This document shows, in pieces, positions 3-23,600 of a stretch of 25,254 bases of DNA. Origin of the DNA: Pseudomonadota bacterium (GTDB lineage: Bacteria > Myxococcota > JACRCW01 > JAFGSX01); assembly GCA_043821645.1 (NCBI GenBank), contig JBDRCO010000133.1, positions 1 to 25,254 of the forward strand. Direction: 5' to 3'. The notes under the pieces are model-generated. The model worked only from the letters and a program-made list of their open reading frames with translations. It ran no database searches and had not been told where the DNA came from. The first letter of the stretch is position 1, and each line of letters starts with the position of its first letter. A program made the translations under genes and the position numbers.

Positions 3-593
3 CCGGCGCCTGCTGCGCCCTTTGCCGCACCACCGCGACCTGCTGCGCCGCCGCCGGCCATGCCTGCCGCTGCGCCCAGGCCGCCTGCGCCCCCGGCACC
101 GGCGGGCTTCGCCTGGCAACCGGCTCCCGCCATGGCCGCCACCCCGGTGAGTCCGCCACTCGCCGCGTCACCTCCTGCCGTCGCGCCGCCGGCGGCACCG
201 TCCCGGGCTGCCTTCGATCCCTTCGGGCTTTCCCTCGACGACGCGAGCAGCGACGACGTGGATATCAGCTTCGAGGACGTGGGCAACGCGCCCCTCGCCG
301 ACATCACCCTGGAACCACCGCCGCGTCCCGCTGCTCCTCCCCCTCCCCCACCGGCGCCGGCTGCGCCCGCCCCGCCTCCAGCACCCGTGGCACCCGCTGT
401 CGCGGTGGCAACACCCCCGGCGGCGGCTCCCCTCGCCGAGCTGACGCCGGGCGCTGGTGTGAGCCAGGCCCAGCTCAGCGCTGCGGTGCGCGAGATCATC
501 GAGCAGGTGGTGTGGGAGGTCGTGCCCGAGCTCGCCGAGACCCTGATCCGTGAGGAGCTGGATCGCCTGCTGCGCGAGCGCGGCGCCACGTGA
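3..593 (+). CDS. romR: 5'-truncated RomR-like polarity response regulator (Pro/Ala-rich linker plus conserved C-terminal helix)
   Basis: The frame is open from the window edge. A long Pro/Ala linker ends in [30 protein letters not shown], which matches the RomR C-terminal motif. The gene lies directly upstream of valS, as I recall for myxobacterial romR. The receiver domain would be outside the window. Confidence 0.7.
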
Positions 594-747
594 GTCGCCG
601 CGCGACCCGGGTCGCGCCTCGTTCACGCATGCTCGCTCGCGTGCCCGCGCTGCCGACAAGCGCGTTGCCGCCAGCCCGCCACATTGCACGCTGACCTGTC
701 GGCCCACGCTGCCCGCGCAGCCGGCCGTCACCCCGAGGACACCGAAC

Positions 748-5148: not shown

Positions 5149-5259
5149 GACCGCCTCCTCGTCATCGCTGTCGCAGTGGTCAGGACTCCCGCGTTGTCGA
5201 GCCAGGACTGGCGGGACGGGCCGGCCTGGTTCGCTCGACACGCCTCGGGAGAGCGACAA

Positions 5260-5276
5260 AGCAAGTGCCTTGCCAG
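5260..5276 (-). promoter_or_regulatory. Putative sigma-54 (-24/-12) promoter upstream of comM
   Basis: The minus strand reads CTGGCAAGGCACTTGCT, giving TGGCA...TTGC with exact GG-N10-GC spacing, about 110 nt upstream of the comM start. Confidence 0.55.
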
Positions 5277-5460
5277 GCGGCGGAAGACACCGAGAGTCCG
5301 TTGCAAAGGCTCCGAGGACCACGGCACCGCGTTCGGACTGGGGCAGGCTGCGGCGGTCTGATGCAAGATGCACCACCCGCGGACGCTTGCCAGATCGGAG
5401 GCGATGGGTTTAGGGTCAAAGCGTCACTCAACTTTGCGTGACGCTTTTCTGGAGCCTGAA

Positions 5461-7997: not shown

Positions 7998-8729
7998 ATG
8001 ACCACCGCAGCCAAGGTCCTCGACGCCACAGAAACACTGCGCGACGCCGTGGACAGACTGCGCTTCGCACCCCCCGTCGACGTGGTCTACAACCCCCTGC
8101 GCTACGCGATGCAGCCCTACCGGCGCTACCTCGAGAAGTTCGCAGCGGGCCCGCGCCGGGTGATCTTTCTGGGCATGAACCCCGGCCCCTTTGGCATGGC
8201 CCAGACCGGCGTGCCCTTTGGCGAGGTGGCGGCAGCGCGCGACTTCCTGGGCGTCGAGGCTCCCGTCGCCAGGCCGCGCCGCGAGCACCCCAAGCGGCCG
8301 GTGCAGGGCTTTGCCTGCACCCGCGCCGAGGTCAGCGGCCAGCGCCTGTGGGGGGCCGTGCAGCAGCACTGGGGTCAGGCCGAAAAGTTCTTCGCGCACC
8401 ACTTCGTGTCCAACTACTGTCCGCTGGTCTTCGTCGAAGCGGGGGGTAAGAACCGCACGCCTGACAAGCTGCCCGTCGACGAGCGGGAACCCCTGTTCGC
8501 GGCCTGCGATCGCCACCTGCTTCGCCTGGTCGAACTGCTCGAGGCCGAATGGGTCATCGGCGTGGGACGCTTTGCCACGGACCGTGCGCGCGAGGCCCTG
8601 TCCGGTCAGGACACGAAGATAGGCACGGTGCTGCATCCCAGCCCGGCCAGTCCCCTCGCCAACAAGGGCTGGGCCGAGCAGGCGGCCAGACAGCTCGCCG
8701 AGCTCGGGCTGTGCACCAAAAAAGTGTGA
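7998..8729 (+). CDS. SMUG1-type (family 3) uracil-DNA glycosylase
   Basis: Signature GMNPGPFGMAQTGVPFG, EVSGQRLWG, NYCPL, NRTPDKL and HPSPASP. Confidence 0.9.
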   Translation: MTTAAKVLDATETLRDAVDRLRFAPPVDVVYNPLRYAMQPYRRYLEKFAAGPRRVIFLGMNPGPFGMAQTGVPFGEVAAARDFLGVEAPVARPRREHPKRPVQGFACTRAEVSGQRLWGAVQQHWGQAEKFFAHHFVSNYCPLVFVEAGGKNRTPDKLPVDEREPLFAACDRHLLRLVELLEAEWVIGVGRFATDRAREALSGQDTKIGTVLHPSPASPLANKGWAEQAARQLAELGLCTKKV

Positions 8730-8779: not shown

Positions 8780-10099
8780 TCAGGCCTTGTCAGGCAGCGG
8801 CTGCAGGCTCTGCGCGGCGACCGCCCGGACCTCGAAGCGCAGCAGCCCCTTGCGCAGTATCGCCCGCAGCGGGGCATCGACCTGCATCACATCAGCGCGG
8901 ATCTGCCGCTCGAGTTCGCGGGCCCGAGCATCGAAGATGTTTGGATCCAAGCGGAGCTCGACGTCGAGCCGCGCATGCCGGGGTGAGTTCTCGTCGATGT
9001 GAAGCTGCCAGCGCGGCAGACCGATGTCGCGACAGCGCAAGAACCCGAGCTTGACCATGGGGTGCTCGCCACGCTCGACCTCGGGCATGGCCTCGAGCAC
9101 ATCCTGTACGTGCAGGGGCGACAACACGAAGCGCCCTCGCTCGCCGTCCCGCACCACCACGCCGCGCCGCAGGCGGCCCAGGCAGCGCAGGCCACGCTGT
9201 CCCGTGACCTTGCAGCGGGGTCCCAGCTCGACGACATCGCCGGTGTCGTAGCGAATGAGCGGCATGGTCTGCACGTAGGGGAATATACCCGTCAGCAGCA
9301 GCAAGCCCTCGCCGCGCGTGCGACGCTGGCCCGTGCACAGGTCCACGACTTCGTAGATCACAGGCGGCCAGCCCCAGTGTAGCCAGCCGCAGTGCGAACA
9401 CTCTGTGGCTGGGGTGGCGAACTCGCTCAGGCTGTAGTTGTCGACGAGGGTGGCCCCGAAGGCACGGCCAATGCGCTCGCGCCAAAACGGAGACAGCCGG
9501 AAGCTGTTGGTGCCGATGACCCGAAGCCCGAAGCGACGCGGGTCCCGGCCCTGTTCGAGTTGCCAGACGGTAAAGCAGCGCAGAGCACCCACGCTGATGC
9601 GCAGGACGTCGGCATGCCTGCCATCAGGAGTCGGGCTCTCGAGCGCCGCCTCGAGCAGGTGCATCGCGTTGGGATGATGCAGCCAGGGCACCAGGATCTC
9701 GCGCGGCGGTGGCGGGCCCGCAGGCAAACCGTGCTTGACGTTGACCACCACCACGGTCCAGCCGGTGTCTGCGGGATCGCCGTCCACGTCGTCGACGGCC
9801 ATGGCCTCGGCCTCGGCGTCCGATGTGCGCACCATCAAGGGTGCGTGGTCGCCACTGTTGCGCGTGGTGCCAGAGGACGCGATGCCCACGCCCGGCGGCA
9901 CCGGACCCACCAGCAGCTCGTGCTGATGGGCCATGGCCGTGACCTTGTCGAGCACGGGCAGCAGGGCCAGGTCGTCGAGCGTGTGCACTCGCCGCCAGCG
10001 CTGCCCGAATGCCCGGCGATAGTAAGGGGCACGCACGGCGTGACCGAGGGTGTCCGCCAGCAACTCGCGCCAGGACTGTCGACGAGATCCGGGCATCAT
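8780..10099 (-). CDS. Divergent phenylacetate-CoA ligase/CapK-like adenylate-forming (ANL) enzyme
   Basis: PYYRR...LALLPVLDK N-terminus, SSGTT P-loop, NYSLSEF (YGxxE-like), MPLIRYDTGD and LGR. The start could be 10096, 10099 or 10114. Confidence 0.7.
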   Translation of the reverse strand: MMPGSRRQSWRELLADTLGHAVRAPYYRRAFGQRWRRVHTLDDLALLPVLDKVTAMAHQHELLVGPVPPGVGIASSGTTRNSGDHAPLMVRTSDAEAEAMAVDDVDGDPADTGWTVVVVNVKHGLPAGPPPPREILVPWLHHPNAMHLLEAALESPTPDGRHADVLRISVGALRCFTVWQLEQGRDPRRFGLRVIGTNSFRLSPFWRERIGRAFGATLVDNYSLSEFATPATECSHCGWLHWGWPPVIYEVVDLCTGQRRTRGEGLLLLTGIFPYVQTMPLIRYDTGDVVELGPRCKVTGQRGLRCLGRLRRGVVVRDGERGRFVLSPLHVQDVLEAMPEVERGEHPMVKLGFLRCRDIGLPRWQLHIDENSPRHARLDVELRLDPNIFDARARELERQIRADVMQVDAPLRAILRKGLLRFEVRAVAAQSLQPLPDKA

Positions 10100-10164
10100 G
10101 CCACGCGGAACCAAGGTGTTGAAGACGTCGCGCGGTCGAGCACCGTGCAGGGGAGGCTCAGGTC

Positions 10165-10659
10165 CTAGCGCTCACCGCCGCTGTAGCCACCGCCAGAGCC
10201 GCCGTAGGAGCTGCTGCTGGACGAGCGATAGCTCGAGCGGTTGGACTCGCCACCAGAGCTGCGTCGCGGAGCGGGACGCACGCTGCTCTCGCTGCTCGAG
10301 GTCCGGCGCCGGGGCGCGGTCTCACCGCCCGAGGCCCTGGAGCGCCCCGTGTAGATGCCGATGCGCGGATCCGCGTCGAGGAGCTTCTGCACATCGCCTT
10401 CCTTGACGTTGGGCAGGTGCACCTTCTTGGTCGAGCTCCACGAACGTTCCATGCGCCCGAGGAAGGCATCGAAGGCCTTTGCCGCCTGCGGCGTGAACTT
10501 GTCGCCGTGCTGCTCGCGGAGCTTGCGCAGTTCCGCGGCCTCGGTCTTGCTGATGCCGGCTCCGTCGAGGGCGCTCGCGACGAGTTTCTGCACGTCGTTC
10601 TTGCCCACCCGGCCGTCGGCGGCGATCTGCTTGAAGGTATTGCGAATGCTGGTGACCAT
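10165..10659 (-). CDS. Hypothetical protein with helical N-terminal domain and Ser/Gly/Arg-rich tail containing repeated SGGE motifs
   Basis: AGGGGA precedes ATG 10659 and codon usage is GC3-rich. The tail contains ASGGET, SSGGES and YSGGER. Confidence 0.75.
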   Translation of the reverse strand: MVTSIRNTFKQIAADGRVGKNDVQKLVASALDGAGISKTEAAELRKLREQHGDKFTPQAAKAFDAFLGRMERSWSSTKKVHLPNVKEGDVQKLLDADPRIGIYTGRSRASGGETAPRRRTSSSESSVRPAPRRSSGGESNRSSYRSSSSSSYGGSGGGYSGGER

Positions 10660-11357: not shown

Positions 11358-11556
11358 GATGTCCTCCCGTGGGTGCGTACCGCAGCGATCTGCCGTCGCA
11401 GGGCTGCACGATATCGCGCCCACCCGGGCTGGCAAGTCGCCGCTGCGCCGGGCTTGAGATCGGGATGTCCTTGGCGGGTGAGGCAGCGACCTGGCACCGG
11501 GGTCACGCCGTGGGGTGACCGCGGTATGCTGGACGGGTCCCTGGCGGGAGGTTCTC

Positions 11557-13656
11557 ATGAAGGCGCAGGCTCTCGCTCCACTCGTGATGGTCTGGACGCT
11601 GATGGCCTGTCCCACGACGCCGCCCATCACAGCGCACGGTGGCGACACAGGCTCCGCCGGTCACGACGGTGGCGTGGACGCGACACGCCTGGATGCCGCG
11701 GGCCAGGATCAGGAGCCGGGAGATCGCCAGGCCGACCGCGCGTCGACCACGGACGCGACGGGAGCGGATGGGCCACGACCCGACACGGCGACGGGCACCG
11801 ATGCGAGCACCGCGCAGGATGTCGCTGTCGCGCCGGACGCGACCAGCAGCGACGCCGGCGCGACGGACGGTGCGGCGTCGAGCCTGGCCCTGAGCTGGTA
11901 CATCCTGGTCGATCAGTTCGGTTATCGCCTCGGCGACCCCAAGGTGGCGGTGCTGCGCGATCCGCAGCAGGGCTTTGACGCGAACGAGAGCTATGGCCCG
12001 GGCAGCAGCTTCGAGGTACGGCGCTGGTCCGATGGCGCTGTGGTGCACAGCGGAGTCGCCACGCCCTGGAACGGCGGTGCGGTACAGGCCTCGAGTGGCG
12101 ACCGCGGCTGGTGGTACGACTTCTCGTCGCTGACCACCCCGGGCAGCTACGTAGTGGTCGACGTGGATCAGGGCCTGCGCTCGGCCCGCTTCGACATCGA
12201 CGCGCAGGTGTACAGGCAGGTGCTGCGGGCCGCCGTGCGCATGTACTTTTACAACCGCTGCGGCGCCGACAAGAGCGCAGTTTTGGCCGGCGCCTGCTGG
12301 GCGGACAGTCCGTCCTTTCTGGGTGCTAGCCAGGATACCGAGGCGCGCTCGGTCGACGACAAGCAGAACGCGAGCACGGCTCGGGACCTGCGCGGCGGCT
12401 GGTTCGACGCTGGCGACACCAACAAGTACGTGACCTTTGCCCAGGGCCCCGTGCACAGGCTGCTGACCGCCTACAGCGAGAAGCCGACCCTGTGGGGCGA
12501 CGACCACGGCATCCCCGAGTCCGGCAACGGCGTGCCCGACCTGCTCGACGAGGTGAAGTGGGAGGTCGACTGGTTCAAGCGCATGCAGGAGGCGGACGGT
12601 GGCGTGCTGCTCAAGCTCGGCACCCTGGACTACAACGACCCCACCCCGCCCAGCGCCGACACGCGGCCGCGGTACTACGTGCCGGCCTGCTCGTCGTCGG
12701 CCATCGCCGCGGCGGGTGTGTTTGCCCACGCGGCCCTGGTCTATGCCACGGTCCCCGCCCTCGCCGGCGAGGTGGCGGACCTGCAGCAGCGCGCCGCGGA
12801 CGCCTGGACCTGGTATCAAGGCCACACCCGCCGCAGCGACTGCGACAGCCAGGAGGTCCTGGCCGGCGACGCCGATTGGGATCTGAACACCCAGGACCAG
12901 GTCGCGGTGGTCGCCGCGGTCTACCTGTTCGCGCTGACGGCGACGGCGAACTACGGCCAGTACGTCATCGACCACTACCAGGTGACGCGGCCCTACCACG
13001 ACATCGGCTGGAGCCGCTACAACGCCGAGCAGGGCGAGGCTCTGCTCTTTTACTCCGCACTGCCTGCGGCAGATGCAACCCTGGCGGCCCGTATTCTCGC
13101 GGACAAGAAGGCCGACGCCGAGAGCGCCGACGACGTCTATCGCTTTCTTGTGCTCAAGGATCTGTACCGCGCCTTCATCACGGACCCCAGCTATCACTGG
13201 GGCAGCAACCAGGTGCGCGCGGACAACGGCACCAGCAACCTCGACGTCTTGACCCATGGGATCCTGGTCAGCGATCCGGTGAGCTACCGCGATCGGGCGC
13301 TGGGCATCGTGCACTACTTTCACGGGGTCAACCCGCTGGGTCTGGTCTATCTGAGCAACATGAGCAGCCTGGGCGCCGAGCGCAGCGCCAGCGAGATCTA
13401 CCACTCGTGGTTCCGCGACGGCAGCCGCTGGGACAGTGCGCTGACGTCGGAATGTGGACCACCGCCAGGCTTCGTTTCGGGAGGGCCCAACGCCAGCAAC
13501 AGCGTGCCCAGGAACCCCCCCGCGGGTCAGCCCCTGCAGAAGAGCTACCTCGACTTCAACACGGGCTGGCCTGACAACTCGTGGGAGATCACCGAGCCCG
13601 GCATCTACTACCAGGCGGCCTACATCAAGCTGCTGGCGGGCTTCGTCGACCCCTGA
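11557..13656 (+). CDS. Lipoprotein glycoside hydrolase family 9 (cellulase-like) with N-terminal Ig-like domain
   Basis: GGGAGG RBS, lipobox TLMA-C and an Asp/Ala/Thr linker. Ig-like start ILVDQFGYRLGDPKVAV. GH9 motifs FYNRCG, DLRGGWFDAGDTNKY, PDLLDEVKWEVDWF, HYFHGVNP and WEITEPGIYYQA. Confidence 0.9.
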   Translation: MKAQALAPLVMVWTLMACPTTPPITAHGGDTGSAGHDGGVDATRLDAAGQDQEPGDRQADRASTTDATGADGPRPDTATGTDASTAQDVAVAPDATSSDAGATDGAASSLALSWYILVDQFGYRLGDPKVAVLRDPQQGFDANESYGPGSSFEVRRWSDGAVVHSGVATPWNGGAVQASSGDRGWWYDFSSLTTPGSYVVVDVDQGLRSARFDIDAQVYRQVLRAAVRMYFYNRCGADKSAVLAGACWADSPSFLGASQDTEARSVDDKQNASTARDLRGGWFDAGDTNKYVTFAQGPVHRLLTAYSEKPTLWGDDHGIPESGNGVPDLLDEVKWEVDWFKRMQEADGGVLLKLGTLDYNDPTPPSADTRPRYYVPACSSSAIAAAGVFAHAALVYATVPALAGEVADLQQRAADAWTWYQGHTRRSDCDSQEVLAGDADWDLNTQDQVAVVAAVYLFALTATANYGQYVIDHYQVTRPYHDIGWSRYNAEQGEALLFYSALPAADATLAARILADKKADAESADDVYRFLVLKDLYRAFITDPSYHWGSNQVRADNGTSNLDVLTHGILVSDPVSYRDRALGIVHYFHGVNPLGLVYLSNMSSLGAERSASEIYHSWFRDGSRWDSALTSECGPPPGFVSGGPNASNSVPRNPPAGQPLQKSYLDFNTGWPDNSWEITEPGIYYQAAYIKLLAGFVDP

Positions 13657-13665
13657 GAAAGCGCG

Positions 13666-14382
13666 TCAGCTGTCGAGCCGACACTCGAAGTCGACACAGG
13701 TCATGCCACTCCACGGGCAGCCCCCGCCATTGCCGTCGGGATCGTAGCAGTAGCCCGTGCAGTAACCGTCGCGCCGCGTGTTGCCCGAGGTGAGGTCGGT
13801 ACACGAGATGCCGCCGCACTGCGCGAACTGGTCGCCGGACAGGTCGCAGGGCGTGCCGTAATACTCGGCGCACACGTTCCAGATGCCGCAGGTGCTGCCC
13901 GGGCAGTCCGAGCCGTGCGAGCAGATCTTCCGGCACTTGTCGGCGACACAGCGCTGGGTCAGGTCGCAGTCGTCGTCGTGCCCGCACTCGGGCGGTGGCC
14001 CGCTGTCGACGACCGCGTCGCGCGACGCCGCATCGCGCAGGCCCGCATCCACCCCGGGATCGGGATCAGGGCAACTGGCACAGGTTCGTTTGTCGCAGGC
14101 GCCCTGGTAGCTCGCGGGATCCACGCAGGCGTTGTCCTCGGGATGACAGCACTGATCCGCCGCGCAGTCGGCGACGCTGCCGCAGCTCCCGGGCTCGCAG
14201 GTTCCTGCGGCAAAGAAGCAGCCCAGCTCGAAGGCCCGGCGCAATCGACACACCTGACCGGCGCCACAATCCGCAGCCGTGTCACAGGGCGCTCCCGAGA
14301 GCACACACAGGTCCACACAGGCTGGCCCCGCCGTCAGCGCGACGGCCAGGAACAATCCGTGGGTCCAGCTCTTGGCATGCAT
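13666..14382 (-). CDS. Cys-rich secreted/lipoprotein with repeated C-x4-DC-x5-C modules
   Basis: Signal peptide ending GPA-C. Repeated modules CDTAADCGAGQVC, CGSVADCAADQCC, CGHDDDCDLTQRC and CSHGSDCPGSTC, with a DAG/DAA linker. Alternative start at 14412. Confidence 0.75.
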   Translation of the reverse strand: MHAKSWTHGLFLAVALTAGPACVDLCVLSGAPCDTAADCGAGQVCRLRRAFELGCFFAAGTCEPGSCGSVADCAADQCCHPEDNACVDPASYQGACDKRTCASCPDPDPGVDAGLRDAASRDAVVDSGPPPECGHDDDCDLTQRCVADKCRKICSHGSDCPGSTCGIWNVCAEYYGTPCDLSGDQFAQCGGISCTDLTSGNTRRDGYCTGYCYDPDGNGGGCPWSGMTCVDFECRLDS

Positions 14383-14525
14383 CCCGGGGTCCCTCGAATT
14401 CGGAGCGGACATGGTACTACGGCAGGCGCAAGGCCTTCACCTGTGGCCGTGTCGCCCCGAGAGCCCGTGCTTGCGCCACCGGCACGTCTCCACGATGCTG
14501 CCCAACCAGACCTCGCGGAGGAGAC

Positions 14526-15635
14526 GTGTCTCGACGCCGATCCCAGCTGCTCGTTCTCGCTGTGCTCGGTCTGATGCTGAGTGCAGCTGCCTGCCTGCCG
14601 CTGCTCGGCCAGGGCCTGCTGTGGATGATCCGACCTGCGGCCAGCTTCGACGCGCTGCCCGTTCCCGACGCCCCGGACTACACGAGACCCCAGGCGTGGG
14701 CAGCTCGGCCGGATCTGGTCGACGGCGCGGATAGACTTCCCCCGGGCGCAGGCCTGGTCGACGGCCAGGCCAGCGCCGGGGTCGACTGCTTCATCGTCCA
14801 CCCCACGACCTACGCGGGCACCGAGTCCTGGAACCAGCCCATTGACGACCCCACGGCCAGGCGCTTGCTCGACGAGCTGGTGCTACCGGTGCAGGCTGCG
14901 GTGTTCAACGACGCGTGCCGGGTGTTCGCGCCCCACTACAGGCAGGCCACCCTGTATGCTTTTCGCGACCGGGACGACAACGCCACGAAAGCCCTCGACC
15001 TGGCCTACAGCGACGTTGAGCGCGCCTTCGACACCTTCGTGCAGCAGCTCAACCGGGATCGACCCTACGTGCTGGCGGGCCACAGCCAGGGCACGCTCCT
15101 GCTGCTGCGCCTGCTCAGGCAGCGCATCTCCGGCACGGGGCTGCAAGCACGGCTCGTGGTGGCCTACCTGCCCGGCTGGACCGTCGCCGCCCAGGACCTG
15201 CTCCAGCTGCCTGACATCCCTGTGTGCCGCGAGGCAGCACAGACGGGCTGCCTGGTGTCCTGGAACACCGAGCAGGCCGACGCACGCCCGGCCTTCGTCG
15301 ACCTCACCTCGCCGGACACGGTGTGCGTCAACCCCCTGTCCTGGACCCGCGACGGGCAGTACCTGGGTCACGCGTTCAACCATGGTGGCCTGGCGCTCGA
15401 CCGCGAGCAGCCTCTGCAGCTGCCGCACCTGGAGCCCGGCATCAGCGACGCGCAGTGCGTGCGCGGCGCCTTGCGCGTGTCGCCCGTCGACGACGCGCGC
15501 TTCCGCAATGACCTCGTCGCGGACGCGCTGCTCGGGCCAGGTGTGCTGCACAACGTCGACTACGGCCTGTTCTACCTCGACCTCAGGACCAACCTGGGTC
15601 AGCGCGTGGCGGCCTTCATGACGCGGGGCCGCTGA
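14526..15635 (+). CDS. DUF3089-like alpha/beta hydrolase (putative esterase/lipase) with N-terminal hydrophobic anchor
   Basis: GGAGG precedes GTG 14526. Motifs PDYTRPQAWAARP, DCFIVHPTTY, FAPHYRQAT, nucleophile elbow GHSQG, CVNPLSW and LHNVDYGLFY. Confidence 0.85.
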   Translation: MSRRRSQLLVLAVLGLMLSAAACLPLLGQGLLWMIRPAASFDALPVPDAPDYTRPQAWAARPDLVDGADRLPPGAGLVDGQASAGVDCFIVHPTTYAGTESWNQPIDDPTARRLLDELVLPVQAAVFNDACRVFAPHYRQATLYAFRDRDDNATKALDLAYSDVERAFDTFVQQLNRDRPYVLAGHSQGTLLLLRLLRQRISGTGLQARLVVAYLPGWTVAAQDLLQLPDIPVCREAAQTGCLVSWNTEQADARPAFVDLTSPDTVCVNPLSWTRDGQYLGHAFNHGGLALDREQPLQLPHLEPGISDAQCVRGALRVSPVDDARFRNDLVADALLGPGVLHNVDYGLFYLDLRTNLGQRVAAFMTRGR

Positions 15636-15738
15636 GGCGCACGCGCGCCCGGGCATGGGGTGAATGCCGCCGCCCCCGCCACGCGTTTGACCCCTGGCGC
15701 CCGGCTCTTTATTGTCCGCCAGTCGCGAGGCTCGCCCC

Positions 15739-16524
15739 ATGCCCAGCATTCGTCGGTCCCAGGCCCTGGCAGGCCCCTCCCCGCTCGCCCCTCGCCTGGT
15801 CCTGGGCCTGGTGTGGCTACTCGCGGCCGCGAGCGACGATCTGGCACCCGCACTGCAAGATCTCGACGTGCTGGATCGCGAGGCCTACCTCAACCTCCGG
15901 GCCGAGGCTTCCACGGCGCGCGTGCGCGAGGTGCTCGCCGCCCACCCCGACAGCTACGATGTGGCCTGGCGCCTCGCTCGCAGCACGTTCAAGCAGGCCT
16001 ACTCGACCTCGGAGGCGAAGCAGAAGATGGCGCTCGGGGACGAGGGCTACCAGGCGAGCCAACGTGCCCTGAAGCTCCGGCCCGACGGCGTCGAGGCCCT
16101 GTACTGGGGGACCTGCGCCATGGGCATGTACGCCCAGAGCGCCGGCGTGATGCGCGCGATCATGGATGGCGTGGCGGGCAAGATACAGGACGGCTTCGAG
16201 CGCGCGGTGCGCGTCGATCGCCGCTACAACGAGGCAGGCCCGCTCGAGGCCCTGGGTCGATACCTGTACGAGGTGCCCTGGCCCCTGCGCGACAGGCAAC
16301 GCGCCCTCGCGCTGTTCGAGGAGGCCGCGCGCATCGCGCCGCACAAGCTCCGCGTGCAGGCCTTTCTGGGCGACGCCTACCGCGCCCTGGACAGGCCCAC
16401 CGAGGCCCGCCGCGCCTACCAACGCTGCGCCCGCGCCGCGATCCGGCGCGAGGTCGAGATCGACGCGCCCATCTGGCAGGCGCACTGCACCAGGACCCTG
16501 GGGGAGTGGACAAAGGGACCATGA
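15739..16524 (+). CDS. Secreted tetratricopeptide-repeat protein
   Basis: Hydrophobic N-terminal segment, then helical repeats (PDSYDVAWRLAR, RALKLRPDGVEALYW, EALGRYLYEVPWP, FEEAARIAPHKLRVQAFLGDAY). Its stop overlaps the next start (ATGA 16521-16524). Confidence 0.8.
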   Translation: MPSIRRSQALAGPSPLAPRLVLGLVWLLAAASDDLAPALQDLDVLDREAYLNLRAEASTARVREVLAAHPDSYDVAWRLARSTFKQAYSTSEAKQKMALGDEGYQASQRALKLRPDGVEALYWGTCAMGMYAQSAGVMRAIMDGVAGKIQDGFERAVRVDRRYNEAGPLEALGRYLYEVPWPLRDRQRALALFEEAARIAPHKLRVQAFLGDAYRALDRPTEARRAYQRCARAAIRREVEIDAPIWQAHCTRTLGEWTKGP

Positions 16525-17294: not shown

Positions 17295-17924
17295 TCAGCG
17301 CAGCTTTGCCTTCACCTCGTCGAGGGCCAGAGCCTTGAGGCTCGACGAGCCACAGCCCTCGCCCACGGCGAACACGAAGCGCTGCTTGGGGTCGACGTAG
17401 GGACCCTGACAGCCGGCCGGGTCCATCACCGTCGACGAGCCCGGGCACGCCTTGGCCAGGAGCACCGTGACCTTCTTGCCTTGCACGGCCACCAGATCGC
17501 GCGGAGCGATGCCCCCTGGACTCTTGGCGCGGCGCAGCTCGAGCTTGACCGCGGGATCTTTTAATTCCGTCGTCGCCGCCGGCTCCTTGCTGAACGCGAA
17601 GCCCTGGCCCGTCAGCTCCTTCTCGATGCGGCTCCAGTTGCGGGCGCGGGCGCTGGGCTTCACCTGGGGCAGGCACTGCTCGCGGTCCGCACAGATCAGG
17701 TGCGTGGCCGCCGTTGTGCCATCGGCCAGGGACACCAGGCGCAGCTGCAGCTTGGTGACGTCGTCCTCGCCCATGTCCCAGGCCTCGCGCAGGATCACGG
17801 TGCCACCGTCGGCGCTGAAGCCCACCACCTTGGCCGAGAAGCCGACCTCGCAGGCCCTCGCGGGCGTCTGCCCCAATACTTGCAGCAGCAGGAAACAAGC
17901 GATGAGTCCCACGAAGACGCGCAT
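17295..17924 (-). CDS. Hypothetical secreted protein
   Basis: GGGGAGG RBS, signal peptide ending PARA-C, paired cysteines and GC3-rich codons. No family recognised. Confidence 0.7.
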   Translation of the reverse strand: MRVFVGLIACFLLLQVLGQTPARACEVGFSAKVVGFSADGGTVILREAWDMGEDDVTKLQLRLVSLADGTTAATHLICADREQCLPQVKPSARARNWSRIEKELTGQGFAFSKEPAATTELKDPAVKLELRRAKSPGGIAPRDLVAVQGKKVTVLLAKACPGSSTVMDPAGCQGPYVDPKQRFVFAVGEGCGSSSLKALALDEVKAKLR

Positions 17925-18522: not shown

Positions 18523-18693
18523 TCAGTCCTTCCACTCGATCTCGATGGTCTCATCACCCAGCCGGTCGCGCACCAGGCGTGCGAAGGTGCGGATCTCGTC
18601 GACGCAGCAATCGATGGTCTGCTTGTCTTCGATGCGCTTGAGCAGCTCGTCCACGAAATCCCGGATGCGAACCTTCTTGAGGGTCTTGTTCAC
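18523..18693 (-). CDS. 56-aa microprotein with a vicinal Cys-Cys (absent from the ORF track)
   Basis: GGAGG precedes GTG 18693. It translates as MNKTLKKVRIRDFVDELLKRIEDKQTIDCCVDEIRTFARLVRDRLGDETIEIEWKD with strongly GC3-biased codons and fills the gap between the TrxR fusion and darP. Confidence 0.8.
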   Translation of the reverse strand: MNKTLKKVRIRDFVDELLKRIEDKQTIDCCVDEIRTFARLVRDRLGDETIEIEWKD

Positions 18694-18751
18694 GGTCTAC
18701 CTCCGCTGCACGGTGATGTGGACGTGGTGCTGGATCCTGGACCTTTTTACG

Positions 18752-20041
18752 TCAGGCGCCAAGCTCGCGCGACAGTGCCATGGCCGCCACCGTGCCATCG
18801 GCCACCGCGGTGGTCATCTGGCGGTAGCGTGTGGCGCGCACATCCCCGGCCGCGAACACCCCCGGCAGGTTCGTGTGCATGTCGCTGTCGACGCGCACGT
18901 AGCCCCAGTCATCGAGGGTCAACTGCTCAGCCAGGGGCTCGAGGTTGGGCTGCATGCCGGCGAAGATGAACACGCCATCGCAGGCCAGAACACGGCGCTG
19001 GTGCGTCTTGAGGTCCTCGACCTCGACCTCGCCCACGGTGTCGCCTTTCTGCAGGAAGGCGCGCGGCTCGTGCTCCATCAGGAATTCGAACTTGGGATTC
19101 TGGCGCACCGCCTCCTGGGCCTGGCGGTTGGCCTGGAACTCGGCGAACTGGTGCACCAGGGTGATGCGCGAGGCGAACTTGGCGATGAGCTGCGCTTCCT
19201 CGAGGGCCGAGTTGCCACCGCCGATCACCACCACGTGCTTGCCCTCGTAGTACTTGGCGTCGCAGGTGGCGCAGTAGGAGATGCCGCGACCTCGAAACTC
19301 GAGCTCGCCAGGCAAGCCCAGGGGACGCGGCGACGAGCCCGTGGCCACCACCACGGTGCGCCCCCGGATGGTCTCCAGACCATCGATCTCGACCTCGCGC
19401 CGGGCCAGGTCCACGCGCGTGATGTCGACAGCCTGCCGCATCTCCACCCCGGCGTGGCGAGCTTGCTCGGACATGTTGTGGGCAAGCAGGTAGCCAGGCT
19501 GCGGCTCGATGAAGCCTGGGTAGTTGGACACGGTGTGGGTAAGCGCCACGTTGCCACCGGCCAGACCGCGGTCGACGAGCACGGTGTGCAGCTTGGCCTG
19601 GGCCGTGTAGATGCCTGCGGTGAGACCTGCGGGGCCACCGCCCAGGATCAGCACATCGCAGTCTGTGACCGTGCGCTGTTTGCGCGTCTGTATGGCCTGC
19701 GCCCGCTCGGGGGCGATGAGCTTGACCAGGTTGTCCTCGACGGCCGCGCGCTTGATGCCACCGGTGAGGCGGTCACCCACACGATCGCCGCGACGGTAGA
19801 AGATCACCGTGGGCGAGCCTGTGATGCCCAGCGAACTGGCCAGGTCACGGTTCTCCTGGCGAAAGATCTTGATGAACTTGACGTCGTCACCGTACAGCTC
19901 GGCCAGGGCCTCGTACTTGGCGGCCAGGGCCTCGCAGGGCGGGCACTCGCTGGAGTAAAAATCCACCACCACGGGCTGCTCGGCCTCGAGCACCTCGCGC
20001 TGCCACTGGCTGTGATCGATGTAGGTGATCTTGTCGCTCAT
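18752..20041 (-). CDS. Thioredoxin-thioredoxin reductase fusion (N-terminal Trx, C-terminal flavin TrxR)
   Basis: Trx domain VVVDFYSSECPPC...ITGSPT. TrxR motifs GGGPAGLTAG, NYPGF, ATGS, GISYCATCD, GGGNSALEEA and TNLPGVFAAGDV. HQFAEFQA replaces HRRxxxR. Confidence 0.92.
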   Translation of the reverse strand: MSDKITYIDHSQWQREVLEAEQPVVVDFYSSECPPCEALAAKYEALAELYGDDVKFIKIFRQENRDLASSLGITGSPTVIFYRRGDRVGDRLTGGIKRAAVEDNLVKLIAPERAQAIQTRKQRTVTDCDVLILGGGPAGLTAGIYTAQAKLHTVLVDRGLAGGNVALTHTVSNYPGFIEPQPGYLLAHNMSEQARHAGVEMRQAVDITRVDLARREVEIDGLETIRGRTVVVATGSSPRPLGLPGELEFRGRGISYCATCDAKYYEGKHVVVIGGGNSALEEAQLIAKFASRITLVHQFAEFQANRQAQEAVRQNPKFEFLMEHEPRAFLQKGDTVGEVEVEDLKTHQRRVLACDGVFIFAGMQPNLEPLAEQLTLDDWGYVRVDSDMHTNLPGVFAAGDVRATRYRQMTTAVADGTVAAMALSRELGA

Positions 20042-20047
20042 GGTGAT

Positions 20048-21457
20048 CTACCTTTCCTGGGAGGGCTGTGCCCGCCCCTCGTCGGTACAGGCGCATCCCG
20101 TCGACGCCGTTGCATGCGCCCCGACATCCTCGTCGTCGATATACAGCGCCAGGCCCAGCCCGATCATCTCGGGCACGGGCCGGCAGTCGGGAGCGGCGAT
20201 GCGCCCGTGCTGGTTCTTGGCCAGGGCACCGCAGCCCCCCCCGCACACCAGTTTGCTCGGGCAGTCGCGGCACTCAGGAATGGCGAGCACGTCTCGGTCC
20301 TGCCAGGCAGCGACCTTTTCCTCGTCGAGGCTGGCCACGGGGTAGAAGCTGCCGACCTGCTCGCCGGCCTTGCCCACGGTCGCGGTGCACGGGTAGATGG
20401 CGCCCGTGAAGTCATAGGCCCACTCGGTCTTGCAGGCCGGACAGGCGTCGAACAGGGGCTCGGGCAGCTCCCCGGTGTCCGCGAGCTGACGCGCCACGTG
20501 AAACGACGGCCTGTGCAGCTCGAGCACCTCGGGATGCGCCCGGGCCAGCTCGAAGAAGGCCTGGTACAGCGCGAGCCTGTCGTACAGGGCGGTGCGGTCG
20601 GCCTGGCACTCGTGCAGCTCGTAGTTGCGGCCGAGCTGGGTCTTGAAGCCCGGCGCGGCGAGCCAGCCATGCGCGCGCGCCAGGGCGGCGAGTTCAACCA
20701 GGCTGGCCAGGTTGTCCTTGTCCACGACGACGCGCAGGTTGATGGGCAGGCCGCGGGCGATGGCCGCGTCAATGCCGCGTACCACCGCGTCGAAGGTGGC
20801 GCCACCGCCCTTGAGGGGCCGGCGCTGATCGTGCACTGCCGCCGGGCCGTCGAGGGTCACCTGGATCTCACGCAGGGTGGCCCGCCCCAGCAGGTCCAGG
20901 TAGCTCTCGAGGTGGTAGCCATTGGTGACAACAGCAAGATCAACGCCGCGACGACTTGCTTCGTCGACCATCTGCGCGAGATCGCGTCGCGCTCGCGGGC
21001 CGGGCAGCAGGGGCTCGCCGCCGAACACCGTGACGTAGAAGCGACGGCCCGCGAAGCGCCGCGCCAGGTCGTCGAAGAAGGCGGGGATCACGGCCGGGTC
21101 GTGGTCGGGCGCGGGCTGCGCATAGCTGTTCTGAAAGCAGTAGCCGCAGCCGAAGTTGCAGGCGTAGGTCGGCACGTAGAAGACCTGCACCTCGTCCTGC
21201 GCGCGGCCGTCGAGAAAGCGCAGAAAGGCCTGGCGCAGCAGGCGCTGCTCCTCGTCGGGAGGCAGCAGGTAGTCGCGCTCGGCCAGGTCGGGGACGGCCT
21301 CCGGGTGGCCGCTGCCCAGGGCCTCGGCCTCGTCGTGGCTGAGCAGGTCGGCCTCGCCGGTGAGCGGCGAGATCACGAAGCTCGCGTCGCGCCCGGGCAG
21401 GCGAGCCACGATGAGGTTGCGAGCCAGGGCCCTGGCCATGGTCGGTGTCTCCGGCAT
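20048..21457 (-). CDS. Radical SAM/SPASM-domain peptide maturase-like enzyme
   Basis: CNFGCGYC (CxxxCxxC), FGGEPLL, VTNG and QVTLDGPAAVHDQRR. SPASM cysteines CPAC...GAIYPC...CRDCPSKLVCGGGC-x15-C. An ~85-aa N-terminal extension resembles an RRE. The start is 21457 or 21439. Confidence 0.92.
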   Translation of the reverse strand: MPETPTMARALARNLIVARLPGRDASFVISPLTGEADLLSHDEAEALGSGHPEAVPDLAERDYLLPPDEEQRLLRQAFLRFLDGRAQDEVQVFYVPTYACNFGCGYCFQNSYAQPAPDHDPAVIPAFFDDLARRFAGRRFYVTVFGGEPLLPGPRARRDLAQMVDEASRRGVDLAVVTNGYHLESYLDLLGRATLREIQVTLDGPAAVHDQRRPLKGGGATFDAVVRGIDAAIARGLPINLRVVVDKDNLASLVELAALARAHGWLAAPGFKTQLGRNYELHECQADRTALYDRLALYQAFFELARAHPEVLELHRPSFHVARQLADTGELPEPLFDACPACKTEWAYDFTGAIYPCTATVGKAGEQVGSFYPVASLDEEKVAAWQDRDVLAIPECRDCPSKLVCGGGCGALAKNQHGRIAAPDCRPVPEMIGLGLALYIDDEDVGAHATASTGCACTDEGRAQPSQER

Positions 21458-21464
21458 GTCCCGC

Positions 21465-21605
21465 TCAGTCGTGGCAACCGGCGACGTGGCGCGACACCTT
21501 GGCACAGCACTGGGCCTCGGTGCTGGCACGCTCCGGGGTGCGGGCAGGCTTCTTGCCCTTGCTGGGCTGGGTGGTCGCGGGCTTCTTGCGGTTCAGGGAC
21601 TTCAT
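21465..21605 (-). CDS. Putative 46-aa RiPP precursor peptide
   Basis: GGAG 7 nt before ATG 21605. Sequence MKSLNRKKPATTQPSKGKKPARTPERASTEAQCCAKVSRHVAGCHD has a basic leader-like part and all three Cys in the last 14 aa. It ends 7 nt before the rSAM/SPASM start. Confidence 0.8.
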   Translation of the reverse strand: MKSLNRKKPATTQPSKGKKPARTPERASTEAQCCAKVSRHVAGCHD

Positions 21606-21654
21606 GGATGCACTCCGTCGTCGTGGTGCAGGTGGTGAATACGCTCGAACGATC

Positions 21655-22320
21655 TCAGCTGCCACCGTGGCAGCCGCAGGAGGCTGGTCGCGTGCCGGCG
21701 AGGGTGATGCTGCAGACCTGGATGTGGCCCTTGGCATAGGGTGCGCTCTCCTCGAGCACCTGAACACTGTTGAAGCCGCTGTCGACCAGCGTCTCGAGGT
21801 AAGCGTCGCGGGTCACCGCCCCGGCCCAGCACTCGGCCACGGCCACCGGGTCGTTGCGGTAGGCCGCTGGCACCTCCTCGGTGGCGTAGATGTCGCTGAC
21901 CACGAAGCGGCCTCCGGGCTTGAGCACCCTGAAGATCTCGGCCCACACCGCCTTCTTGTCGCCGGCGTGGTTGATGGTGCAGTTGCTGATCACGAGGTCC
22001 GCCGTGCGCGCGGGCAGGTCCAGCTGCTCGAGCTCGCAGCGCACGAACCGCGCATTGGTCACGCCCAGCTTCTCGGCGGTGCGCCTGGCCGTCGCGAGCA
22101 TACCCTCGGCCACGTCGACCCCGTAGGCCAGGCCCGTGGGCCCCACCGCCTCGGCCAGCCGGATCACGTCCTGGCCGCGACCGCTGCCCAGATCCACGCA
22201 CACTTCGCCGGGGCGCGGCTGGGCCAGGTCGATGGCGCCGCCGCAGGACAGGCAGCAGCTGCTGCTGGCCAGCTCCGAGTAGCGTTGCGCGATGGATTCG
22301 GTGGCCCGGGTGATCTGCAT
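21655..22320 (-). CDS. ArsM/AS3MT-like SAM-dependent methyltransferase
   Basis: SAM motif VDLGSGRGQD and FRVLKPGGRFVVSD. ArsM-type Cys contexts SCCLSCGG, ISNCTIN and AECWAGA. C-terminal CGCH tail. Confidence 0.85.
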   Translation of the reverse strand: MQITRATESIAQRYSELASSSCCLSCGGAIDLAQPRPGEVCVDLGSGRGQDVIRLAEAVGPTGLAYGVDVAEGMLATARRTAEKLGVTNARFVRCELEQLDLPARTADLVISNCTINHAGDKKAVWAEIFRVLKPGGRFVVSDIYATEEVPAAYRNDPVAVAECWAGAVTRDAYLETLVDSGFNSVQVLEESAPYAKGHIQVCSITLAGTRPASCGCHGGS

Positions 22321-22584
22321 GGGGACTCTCTGCTAGCCGGCTGTCGGCGGCCTTTACTGTTCGCGCACCTCCTGGTGCATCGCCTGGGTGGGAGCCTCGC
22401 CCATAAAAAGGGATTCGTCACGGCCGGGCAAGGGCTGCCCGGGACCCCAGCGCACCCGCGATGGGCGGAGGCCTGGGTCCGCTGGCCGGCGAGAAGGGCG
22501 CCACGCCGCCCGCGATGCCGCCGGTGGGTGAGCTGAATAAGTCGAGCGAGGATGGGAGAAAAGAGAAGCGAAAGACCGCTGACG

Positions 22585-23406
22585 CTAGCCCCGCGCCCCG
22601 CCGAACTGCATGTTCTCGAGCTGGTAGCGCGTGAGGTTGGCGAAGAACCACGCGCCGTAGATGCCGAAGGTGATCGAGGTCAGCAGACCGCCCACGAGCG
22701 ACAGCACGAAGAGCTGGCCGCCGGTGCCCACGAAGTCGCCGGTCAGGGCCTGATTGTCGACGGTGAGCTTGGTGTTCTGAGCCATGAACTGCATCATCTT
22801 GACCTGGAACCAGAAGCTGTAGATGCCCAGGGTGACCATGGTCAGCAGGTAGCCGACCAGGAAGGTCACGAACAGGTTGCCACCGGTGCCGCTGAAGGCC
22901 ACCGTGCCCACCTTGGTGTCGCCGCGCAGGATGTCGGTCTTCTCGGCGAACAGGGTGTACAGCTTGCACATGAACCAGGGCGCGTAGATGCCGAAGGTGA
23001 TCGAGGTCAGCAGGATGCCCACCAGGTAGGCCACGAAGAGCTCACCACCGGTGGCGGTGAAGCGCAGGCGGTAGGTCGTGCCGTCTGCGGCCTTGGCCGT
23101 GGTGTTGTCGGCGTAGAAGCGCATCAGGTTGGCCATGAACCAGGCTCCGTAGATACCGAAGGTGATCGAGGTGAGCAGGGCGCCCACCAAGCCCACCACG
23201 AACAGCTGACCACCCGTGCCCTTGAACTCCACTTGCAGCGAGCCCTTGGGCCCGCCCTCGATGGTGGTCTTGGAGGCGGCATACTGCATGATGCTGACCA
23301 TGAACCAGGGCATGTAGATACCCATGGTGATGGCCGTCAGGATCATGCCGACCAGAAACTTCACGAAGATCTCGCCACCCGTACCCGTGAACTTGAACTT
23401 CCTCAT
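22585..23406 (-). CDS. DUF898/YjgN-like inner membrane protein made of five ~57-aa repeats
   Basis: GGAGGGG precedes ATG 23406. Five copies of F-x-(G/A)TGG-x-(L/I)FV-x2-LVG-x-(L/I)LT-x-(I/V)T-x-GIY-x2-WF. Confidence 0.85.
   Translation of the reverse strand: MRKFKFTGTGGEIFVKFLVGMILTAITMGIYMPWFMVSIMQYAASKTTIEGGPKGSLQVEFKGTGGQLFVVGLVGALLTSITFGIYGAWFMANLMRFYADNTTAKAADGTTYRLRFTATGGELFVAYLVGILLTSITFGIYAPWFMCKLYTLFAEKTDILRGDTKVGTVAFSGTGGNLFVTFLVGYLLTMVTLGIYSFWFQVKMMQFMAQNTKLTVDNQALTGDFVGTGGQLFVLSLVGGLLTSITFGIYGAWFFANLTRYQLENMQFGGARG
22656..23178. repeat. 31-nt intragenic direct repeat, three copies
   Basis: CGTAGATGCCGAAGGTGATCGAGGTCAGCAG is exact at 22656-22686 and 22983-23013, with a two-mismatch copy at 23148-23178. 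It encodes LLTSITFGIY in the DUF898-like repeats. Confidence 0.8.
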
Positions 23407-23600
23407 GGTCGTGGCCCCTCCACCTGTGTGAGCGGTTGCGGTCGTAGCCATACTCGCGAATGCGCAGAGCCTTGCAGAGGTCGGACATCGCAGCAAGGGG
23501 TGTTGCCTGCTCCGGGCACTTCGACTCAGAGAAGAAACGTCTCGCGCCCTGGCTTGCCAGCCCGCGCGACGCGACCTATGACATCGAGATGCTGCCAATC

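Follow-up and report, generated by a model that had tools for sequence, protein, structure and literature searches.

The window analysed here is a stretch of 25,254 nucleotides (positions 1 to 25,254 of contig JBDRCO010000133.1, assembly GCA_043821645.1) from a bacterium that GTDB places in the Myxococcota. Its minus strand carries an operon of four genes, ∼3.6 kb in all, which encodes in this order a small methyltransferase (MT) resembling the arsenite methyltransferases ArsM and AS3MT, a precursor-like peptide, a putative radical S-adenosylmethionine (SAM)/SPASM peptide maturase (rSAM) and a thioredoxin fused to a thioredoxin reductase (Trx-TrxR). The open reading frame (ORF) of the peptide starts 49 nt beyond the MT stop at 21655, the rSAM ATG follows the peptide stop by 7 nt, and the Trx-TrxR gene begins 6 nt after the rSAM stop. 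Upstream the operon is flanked by a gene for a DUF898/DUF4234 membrane protein and downstream by DarP/YjgA, neither of which recurs in related loci; the upstream gene (22585–23598, minus strand) encodes a repeat-containing protein of the DUF898/DUF4234/DUF6693 type and is not conserved beside the cassette.

The same arrangement is found far beyond this organism. We surveyed the GTDB set, with each species represented by a single genome, for two motifs particular to the family and obtained at least 600 stretches, with at least 585 confirmed relatives; the locus counts given throughout rest on the best 80 of these at least 585 relatives, with up to 8 kb of flank for each. The 80 loci belong to Bacteroidota (66), Ignavibacteriota (7), Myxococcota (2), Spirochaetota (1), Bacillota (1) and Cyanobacteriota (1), and two are unassigned. 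The C-terminal peptide motif QCCAK.S....GCHD, followed by a stop codon, occurs once per locus in 77 of the 80, always just downstream of MT, and has no further occurrence in the 983-kb six-frame translation of the loci. Where the available sequence extends at least 500 nt further, an rSAM gene follows directly downstream in the same orientation in 74 of 76 loci; where it extends at least 4.5 kb, 52 of 54 loci have the Trx-TrxR fusion downstream. MT, peptide, rSAM and Trx-TrxR are a conserved unit across six phyla and not a local accident. The original prediction, made from the letters of the window, had placed MT in a peptide cluster rather than in an ars operon, and the neighbours it relied on are both confirmed here and conserved in related loci. 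No protease or exporter is among the genes that recur with the cassette, as judged from gene clusters across the 80 loci, whose single-copy neighbours are partly annotated; since the core cassette has neither, its product probably acts inside the cell.

Several loci deviate from the common order. In L046, MT runs straight into the rSAM gene, with neither peptide nor Trx-TrxR, while L066 has MT, a thioredoxin and Trx-TrxR, with neither peptide nor rSAM. In L030 the rSAM gene is upstream of MT on the opposite strand. The peptide motif is missing from L064, where only 127 nt of sequence are available beyond MT, and the Trx-TrxR alignment of L079 begins only at residue 24.

MT is encoded by a frame that is open from its ATG through 221 codons and a stop, with a GC content at third codon positions (GC3) of 0.92 that is typical of coding sequence within the 64–73% GC of the window. 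Pfam assigns the domain to Methyltransf_31 (E 6.2e–30), that is, to the class I SAM methyltransferases. When all PDB sequences were searched with phmmer, five ArsM/AS3MT sequences ranked first (E 6.4e–23 to 2.8e–18), headed by Chlamydomonas ArsM (5evj, E 6.4e–23), a value that argues against a chance likeness. An AlphaFold2 (AF2) model built from 18 homologues has a mean predicted local distance difference test score (pLDDT) of 86.5, and its Foldseek matches in PDB are ArsM/AS3MT structures at all ranks from 1 to 12, the best being 4fr0 (E 4e–19, query-normalised TM-score 0.79).

The cysteines carry this likeness into the catalytic site. The original prediction had quoted the contexts LSCGG, ISNCTIN and AECWAGA as parallels of the arsenic-binding cysteines of ArsM, and all three are present in the translated MT, within SSSCCLSCGGA (C22, C23, C26), ISNCTINH (C114) and AECWAGA (C164). 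It had also named non-equivalent positions as an outcome that would count against it. Alignment with the Cyanidioschyzon ArsM (CmArsM) chains 4kw7/4fr0 (phmmer against PDB, E 1.9e–21) pairs C26, C114 and C164 with C72, C174 and C224, which are the As(III)-binding set of CmArsM and whose equivalents are invariant in 81 of 81 members of the MT family. In a MAFFT alignment of these 81 members and 30 proteins scoring above the NCBIfam ArsM cutoff, C22, C23, C26, C114 and C164 are found in 81/81 family members and in 29–30 of the 30 canonical representatives. The N-terminal CC pair (C22, C23) is among them, so that what had been described as a compressed N-terminal region can be specified: canonical ArsM has ∼25–35 residues between the CC pair and the cysteine of LGCGNP, while MT reads CC-LS-C, and the compression appears in the alignment as deletion of this loop of ∼25–35 residues. 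The segment is modelled with a pLDDT of 45–60. In ArsM the disulfide cascade also uses a fourth, N-terminal cysteine (C44 equivalent), for which the CC pair of MT is a candidate counterpart.

At its other end MT carries a CGC tail, which is probably flexible because pLDDT falls below 50 at residues 217–221 of the model; Cys-rich C-terminal tails are also seen in some canonical ArsM representatives. The protein of the window ends in SCGCHGGS and thus has the triplet G-C-H in common with the terminal GCHD of the peptide (21655–21680 and 21465–21480, minus strand). This is probably a coincidence, since the tails of other family members vary (CGCGN, CCCG and so on), while mimicry of the substrate end by the MT tail is conceivable.

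The family is numerous and compact. Among 5.8 billion protein clusters (90% identity) we obtained 5,914 MT matches, and the best 120 of these are nearly all 209–232 aa long and 64–80% identical to the MT of the window. Where they are named, the best matches are called 'arsenite methyltransferase', 'UbiE' or 'methyltransferase domain-containing protein', several JGI records being of the first kind. In a 50%-identity library the family is represented by two full-length proteins (71% and 58% identical), and no other full-length protein exceeds 49% identity. Most of the distant representatives, of 250–450 aa, pass the cutoff of the ArsM model NF008823; the MT of the window, its two library representatives and several proteins of ∼205–228 aa all fall short of E 1e–60 on that model. 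In an IQ-TREE phylogeny of 63 rows (a quick search, with long branches on several short-protein rows), 12 cassette-family and 9 other short proteins group together (SH-like approximate likelihood ratio test, SH-aLRT, 97) and all 30 cutoff-passing ArsMs stand apart (SH-aLRT 99). Sequence, cysteine positions and fold therefore uphold an ArsM-type enzyme as originally proposed; to call it 'an ArsM' overstates its membership, because the family is below the curated cutoff and forms a clade of its own. By these comparisons MT is a compact member of a sister clade to the ArsM/AS3MT arsenite methyltransferases. A collection of 72,556 plasmids contains no member of the family at ≥60% identity; the 272 matching records are all below 60%, and the matches listed are canonical arsM.

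The peptide gene stands next to that of MT. Its full sequence is MKSLNRKKPATTQPSKGKKPARTPERASTEAQCCAKVSRHVAGCHD, with the C-terminal end AQCCAKVSRHVAGCHD, and a Shine-Dalgarno-like GGAG at 21613–21616 stands 7 nt before its ATG. Across loci the precursors are 31–53 aa long and consist of a basic N-terminus, MKSL[IV]KKK, a linker of variable length and the C-terminal 16-mer. The 78 cores compared come in 74 distinct DNA versions, and yet 11 of the 16 positions never vary (A, Q, C, C, A, K, S, G, C, H, D; 78/78); each of these residues is written with two to five synonymous codons, and all three stop codons are seen right after the Asp. As the residues stay the same despite synonymous codon variation, the peptide is under purifying selection at the protein level, and its exact C-terminus matters. 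It is nearly absent from protein databases (6 candidates, the peptide of the window included, among the 5.8 billion clusters, the other 5 at E ≥0.47) because so small a gene escapes gene calling and not because it is rare. No NCBIfam model matched it. The Pfam BTK motif was matched by 3 of 4 peptides tested, not by that of the window, with the identical CC-x9-C spacing at a chance-level score (E 0.018–0.057); this spacing is that of a zinc knuckle and, with the invariant His added, may point to a Cys3-His metal knuckle in the core. With a Cys3-His core that is invariant across six phyla and a maturase and a disulfide reductase of its own, the peptide resembles a cofactor or carrier more than an antibiotic.

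The rSAM protein is recognised by Pfam Radical_SAM, and all 20 of the homologues aligned keep its CNFxCxYC motif and SPASM cysteines without change. An alternative start, GTG 21529, overlaps the peptide gene; homologues align only from about residue 26–36 of this longer form. Its top NCBIfam matches are all peptide maturases (TIGR04463, CefB, geopeptide, Clo7bot, DynA, PapB and mycofactocin), and none reaches its cutoff: the protein scores 106.6 bits against 525 for TIGR04463, 100.1 against 600 and 75.4 against 340 for other models of the thioether type, and 71.4 against 265 for the mycofactocin enzyme. The cutoffs of named maturases are missed by a wide margin not only by this rSAM but also by one Bacteroidota homologue. 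The AF2 model (pLDDT 75.6) finds CteB (5wgg) as its best Foldseek match, with E 6.4e–16 over 477 columns that include the N-terminal domain of three strands and a helix; further matches are anSME, SuiB, SkfB, ChlB and TigE. Pfam models of the recognition element of peptides that are made on the ribosome and modified after translation (RiPPs), RRE and PqqD, gave no match on rSAM, so the N-terminus is termed RRE-like from its predicted fold. A search of the ESM Atlas with rSAM returned generic radical SAM clusters only. As far as the model goes, rSAM is a CteB-like peptide maturase of the RiPP type.

The last gene of the operon joins a Pfam Thioredoxin domain (residues 7–104) to Pyr_redox_2 (residues 129–416). 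The protein scores 309.4 bits on NCBIfam TRX_reduct, under the cutoff of 343.45, and among 61 full-length homologues the active-site motifs are kept in 57 (CPPC) and 60 (CATC). The ArsM/AS3MT cycle forms one disulfide per turnover, which is reset by Trx, TrxR and NADPH. By analogy, a dedicated disulfide reductase fits a disulfide-forming cycle of this type. Coordinates of all these features are collected in Table 1.

Table 1. Features of the operon, with the accessory genes that recur near related operons
Feature	Position or number of loci	Strand	Basis
Methyltransferase (MT), 221 aa, first gene of the operon	21655..22320	-	ORF, translation, Pfam, NCBIfam, phmmer against PDB, AF2/Foldseek
CCLSC codons (C22, C23, C26), compressed N-terminal Cys cluster	22243..22257	-	CCLSCG[GA]A in 80/80 locus homologues
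C114 codon (SNCTINHA)	21979..21981	-	aligns with CmArsM C174; SNCT[IL]NHA in 80/80
C164 codon (ECWAGA)	21829..21831	-	aligns with CmArsM C224; [EQ]CWAG in 80/80
CGC tail at the MT C-terminus (C215, C217)	21670..21678	-	C-x0-1-C within the last 12 residues in 71/80 homologues
Intergenic region upstream of MT, presumed promoter/regulatory	22321..22584	-	no element identified
Precursor-like peptide, 46 aa, MKSLNRKK...AQCCAKVSRHVAGCHD	21465..21605, stop included	-	translation, Shine-Dalgarno-like site, motif in related loci
16-residue C-terminal peptide core, A31-D46 (C33, C34, C44, H45)	21468..21515	-	codon comparison of 78 cores
Putative radical SAM/SPASM peptide maturase (rSAM), 469 aa from ATG 21457	20048..21457	-	Pfam Radical_SAM, conserved motifs, CteB fold match
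Fusion of a thioredoxin (CPPC) with a thioredoxin reductase (CATC), 429 aa, final operon gene	18752..20041	-	Pfam, NCBIfam
Accessory: extra thioredoxin	41 loci		
Accessory: DUF302	37 loci		
Accessory: DUF6132 (small Cys-rich membrane protein)	33 loci		
Accessory: second Trx-like protein, 116 aa	20 loci		
Accessory: SQR-like flavoprotein	16 loci		
Accessory: NapH-like ferredoxin	15 loci		
Accessory: OsmC	14 loci		
Accessory: Crp-family regulator	14 loci		
Accessory: DUF1847	14 loci		
Accessory: methionine gamma-lyase	7 loci		
Accessory: rhodanese	4 loci		
Accessory: HdrB-like	4 loci		
Accessory: HdrC-like	4 loci		

The original prediction had offered two readings, an organoarsenical route on a peptide scaffold or an ArsM fold turned to peptide S-methylation; the results are compatible with either, and also with a third in which MT methylates another soft atom tethered through a thiol, such as sulfane sulfur or selenium. 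The anatomy of the operon, the matching cysteines, the folds, the gene order across loci and the selection on the peptide are observations, from which the chemistry is inferred. Taken with its obligatory coupling to MT, the peptide, or a cargo that it bears, is likely to be the substrate or the partner of the enzyme. The reading that we prefer, at a probability of roughly 45%, is that MT uses an ArsM-type thiol clamp to methylate a soft atom which the cysteines of the peptide present. In such a scheme, rSAM would bind the basic leader (MKSLxKK) through its RRE-like N-terminal domain, as the fold suggests, and would modify the invariant 16-residue core, most plausibly with a thioether-type crosslink by analogy with the fold of CteB. 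The soft atom would be handed over by the free cysteines of the core, or kept tethered to them, while the conserved thiols of MT (C22/C23, C26, C114, C164 and the flexible CxC tail) would clamp this nucleophilic atom beside the SAM methyl group and methylate it. Disulfides arising during turnover, in the enzyme or in the peptide, would then be reduced by the fused Trx-TrxR with NAD(P)H, as in the ArsM/AS3MT cycle. Within this reading the probability is divided between two kinds of acceptor: As(III) or Sb(III), a tentative assignment that is fairly unlikely in itself yet slightly ahead, and a sulfane sulfur or selenium atom borne by a peptide cysteine, which is unlikely as well but would fit the SQR, rhodanese and methionine-lyase neighbours.

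Several observations weigh against this reading, some of them from within the operon itself. If rSAM used all three peptide cysteines in crosslinks, none would be left to carry an atom. In RiPP clusters an adjoining methyltransferase usually simply methylates the peptide. On the NCBIfam arsenite methyltransferase model NF008823, which is its best match, MT reaches 189.5 bits against a cutoff of 263, over profile positions 59–233 of 272. The surroundings of the cysteines differ too: S25, G28-A29, C41, R48, R54, T115, H118, Y145, E163 and W165 are invariant in the MAFFT alignment of the family, whereas the corresponding residues of the ArsM proteins are G, N-P, V, G, L, V, L, V, G and I/V. T115 and H118 replace the V and L of 30/30 canonical ArsMs, giving a C-x3-H arrangement (C114 to H118) in 81 of 81 family members where all 30 ArsMs have Leu at the His position. 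Family-specific residues beside every catalytic cysteine suggest that the substrate of MT is not that of canonical ArsM, and this remodelled second shell also fits a loss of metalloid chemistry.

These points can be turned into an explanation by plain RiPP tailoring, in which the ArsM fold has been repurposed to S-methylate a peptide cysteine (or to methylate another side chain), the cysteine triad, perhaps with His118, would bind a metal such as zinc in a structural or catalytic role, or would itself be only structural, and Trx-TrxR would only keep thiols reduced. Zinc activates a substrate thiolate in Ada and MetE. The position of the MT gene directly upstream of the precursor in 77/80 loci is usual for RiPP tailoring enzymes, and the remodelled second shell of each cysteine with its new invariant His four residues past C114, the score under the ArsM cutoff and the absence of ars context all agree with it. 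Methylation of a thiolate, however, requires neither four to five invariant enzyme cysteines nor an equally conserved Trx-TrxR (52/54 loci), so that an enzyme that appears to keep all the ArsM thiols, the N-terminal pair included, and has a private Trx-TrxR is a poor match to a plain tailoring S-methyltransferase. Our literature searches found no RiPP with cysteine S-methylation by an ArsM-like enzyme, and to our knowledge none exists. We consider tailoring of this kind possible, if somewhat unlikely.

The genomic surroundings also weigh against the thiol-clamp reading. As had been stated, arsR, arsC and acr3 are absent from the window, judging from Pfam on 26 candidate ORFs and from tblastn with ArsR, ArsC, Acr3 and ArsP-type proteins of other loci. 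Among gene clusters that recur in at least 4 of the 80 loci there are no ars families. We further probed 296 flanking proteins (230 single-copy ORFs and 66 small-cluster representatives) by tblastn, using as queries ArsR, ArsC, permease and Acr3 proteins of L062 and of two plasmid loci with canonical arsM, and applied Pfam to 20 ORFs. ArsR/SmtB-family regulator genes were found in 6/80 loci, an ArsP_1-type permease with a Thioredoxin_3 protein in 3/80, and Acr3 (Pfam SBF) with an ArsC of the LMWP type in 1/80 (L062). One full set against a roughly estimated ∼0.4 expected among 80 loci is about chance level, and enrichment of ars genes near the cassette was therefore rejected.

The adjacency in L062, which we treat as a lead, would suit an ordinary arsenic-resistance ArsM standing by chance beside an unrelated peptide cluster: here MT is directly downstream of genes of the arsR-arsC-acr3-arsP type. 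MT is ArsM-like in sequence and fold, and several JGI homologues are annotated 'arsenite methyltransferase'. An accidental neighbourhood is nevertheless hard to reconcile with synteny of MT with peptide (77/80), rSAM (74/76) and Trx-TrxR (52/54) across six phyla, or with a family that forms its own clade below the ArsM cutoff. As a control, ArsR/SmtB regulators adjoin both of two canonical plasmid arsM loci, one of which also has two ArsC genes and a permease; the window has none of these. An ordinary ArsM is, in our view, very improbable.

On the Ignavibacteriaceae chromosome concerned, the run in L062 (1432–7975, plus strand, the same strand as the cassette at 8001) is the only one of the 80 in which a full ars-type set adjoins. 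It consists of ArsR (HTH_5), LMWP-type ArsC, an F420_oxidored-like protein, Thioredoxin_3, an SBF-family carrier (Acr3-type), an ArsP_1 permease, a Trx-like protein, DsbD_TM and an AhpC/TSA redoxin. In two Bacteroidota loci (L007, 7473–7760; L063, 7496–7783; plus strand) an ArsR/SmtB regulator and then an ORF of 70–78 aa that has no Pfam match lie directly upstream of MT, in its orientation. The ArsR/SmtB family also includes persulfide sensors.

In Bacteroidota the cassette is often part of a larger thiol/sulfur-redox island. In L012, L023 and L051, for example, the island extends from ∼–3.4 kb to +7 kb around MT, with a Crp-family regulator, OsmC, the 116-aa Trx-like protein, a separate TrxR (∼43% identical to the fusion), Trx and DUF6132 on the upstream side and DUF302, the SQR-like flavoprotein, the NapH-like ferredoxin and Trx on the downstream side; in some loci DUF1847 stands between the genes of rSAM and Trx-TrxR. 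The recurrent accessory genes are of general thiol/sulfur-redox character and name no acceptor atom, which is a further point on the debit side of our reading. Such islands of thiol and sulfur stress (extra Trx in 41 loci, SQR-like in 16, OsmC in 14, methionine gamma-lyase in 7, rhodanese in 4) would also suit a peptide that is itself a thiol redox cofactor or carrier, an analogue of low-molecular-weight thiols reduced by Trx-TrxR; MT would then act on sulfide, methanethiol, selenide or As(III), and the peptide would be only its reductant or chaperone. The core is conserved across six phyla as expected of cofactor-like peptides and not of diversifying antibiotics, and the core cassette has neither exporter nor protease. 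This explanation is quite improbable, because the tight order of MT and then peptide and the co-loss patterns in L046 and L066 point to a direct relation of enzyme and peptide, and because it leaves the need for an ArsM-type site unexplained.

A bolder version of thiol-clamp methylation can be drawn by analogy. The product might be a ribosomal peptide that bears a metalloid: the core cysteines would bind As(III) or Sb(III), a carbon radical generated by rSAM would form a C–As bond, MT would methylate the bound arsenic, and Trx-TrxR would close the redox cycle. We regard this as a long shot. If true, it would be the first peptide-templated organoarsenical, and would come from hundreds of mostly anaerobic species.

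Comparison with known systems shows which elements are shared and which are particular to the cassette. With ArsM/AS3MT (4fr0, 5evj and 8xt7; NF008823), MT shares the class I SAM fold, and in the alignments its cysteines stand at positions equivalent to the three that bind As(III) and to the N-terminal pair. It differs in length (∼215 aa in the MT family against 250–400 aa), in lacking the loop from CC to the next catalytic cysteine, in forming a separate clade below the curated cutoff with its own invariant residues beside each catalytic cysteine, and in its setting, which is no ars operon but the fixed one that it shares with peptide, rSAM and Trx-TrxR. ArsM-type methyltransferases are known to act in pairs with radical SAM enzymes in organoarsenical synthesis, ArsM-ArsL leading to arsinothricin and ArsM-ArsS to arsenosugars. 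The cassette resembles these pairs in that the two kinds of enzyme are encoded together, while none of the organoarsenical ArsM models is matched at cutoff by MT (NF040538, 110.7 against 500; NF040539, 71 against 240; NF038099, 68.5 against 400), the radical SAM partner is of the SPASM, CteB-like type with an RRE-like N-terminus, unlike ArsL and ArsS, and a ribosomal peptide and Trx-TrxR are obligatory partners.

Closer in the peptide are the thioether RiPPs matured by rSAM/SPASM enzymes (CteB/SCIFF, ranthipeptides/PapB, CefB and TIGR04463), which also have a short precursor with a basic leader and a Cys-rich core beside the maturase gene. In contrast to them, the core of our cassette is invariant across phyla instead of diversified, and the core cassette includes no protease or exporter; our literature searches found no ArsM-like methyltransferase and Trx-TrxR as partners of these classes. 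Peptide-derived cofactors made by rSAM/SPASM enzymes, namely mycofactocin (MftA/MftC) and PQQ (PqqA/PqqE), offer another parallel. Like the cassette, they have a tiny conserved precursor whose C-terminus is exact, a maturase of the rSAM/SPASM type, a product that acts inside the cell (as that of the cassette probably does) and a wide, patchy spread, but the cassette is devoid of a dedicated peptidase and of more tailoring genes, and its core is rich in Cys3-His where theirs use Val-Tyr or Glu/Tyr.

In the region upstream of MT (22321..22584), a promoter scan found no sigma-70-like site, and an Rfam scan of the whole window matched no family. A terminator-like hairpin at 22567–22580, 3′ of the upstream DUF898 gene, is of a kind that occurs at chance frequency (2 found, 1.7 expected). 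Two plus-strand ORFs that overlap the MT gene (21445–22536 and 18545–21739) were rejected, having no Pfam match where tested and no coding GC3 signature. The rest of the window is occupied by genes of varied function. A valyl-tRNA synthetase gene (550–3607, plus strand) is split over two frames: the ORF at 550–2862 covers positions 2–185 of the tRNA-synt_1 profile, and that at 1355–3607 covers positions 185–414 together with the anticodon-binding and C-terminal arm domains. Since the profile continues across the two reading frames, this points to a frameshift around 1.4–1.8 kb, which may be an error of sequencing or assembly or may mark a pseudogene. It is followed by a ComM/YifB-type Mg-chelatase-like ATPase (3628–5376, minus), a GH13 alpha-amylase-family protein with an AMPK1_CBM glycogen-binding module (5368–7812, plus), a UDG-superfamily protein (7998–8729, plus), a GH9 cellulase with a CelD_N domain (11515–13656, plus), a DUF3089 protein (within 13995–15635, plus) and a TPR protein (15712–16524, plus). 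Four minus-strand ORFs (8780–10114, 10165–10659, 13666–14412 and 17295–17924) have a coding-like GC3 yet no Pfam match.

The combination of an ArsM-clade enzyme with an rSAM/SPASM peptide system is undescribed in the searchable literature. A full-text search, whose coverage excludes most subscription journals and supplements, returned nothing on an ArsM-like enzyme with rSAM/SPASM and a precursor peptide, and the string QCCAK led only to an unrelated paper on snake venom. The cassette is not mentioned in the available portions of PMC13188914, bioRxiv 10.1101/2022.07.06.499078 and PMC10352776. In the June 2026 release of Pfam/NCBIfam there is no model for the peptide, and none takes in the MT clade or the maturase at its curated cutoff.

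What matters for the biology of the family is that a short 'ArsM-like' clade, present in at least 585 stretches of species-representative genomes, is locked to a peptide system and not to ars genes. If this clade does not methylate free arsenite, arsM surveys that count it overestimate the arsenic-methylating potential of anoxic habitats. If, on the other hand, MT methylates arsenic on the peptide, the cassette would represent a new branch of organoarsenical biochemistry.

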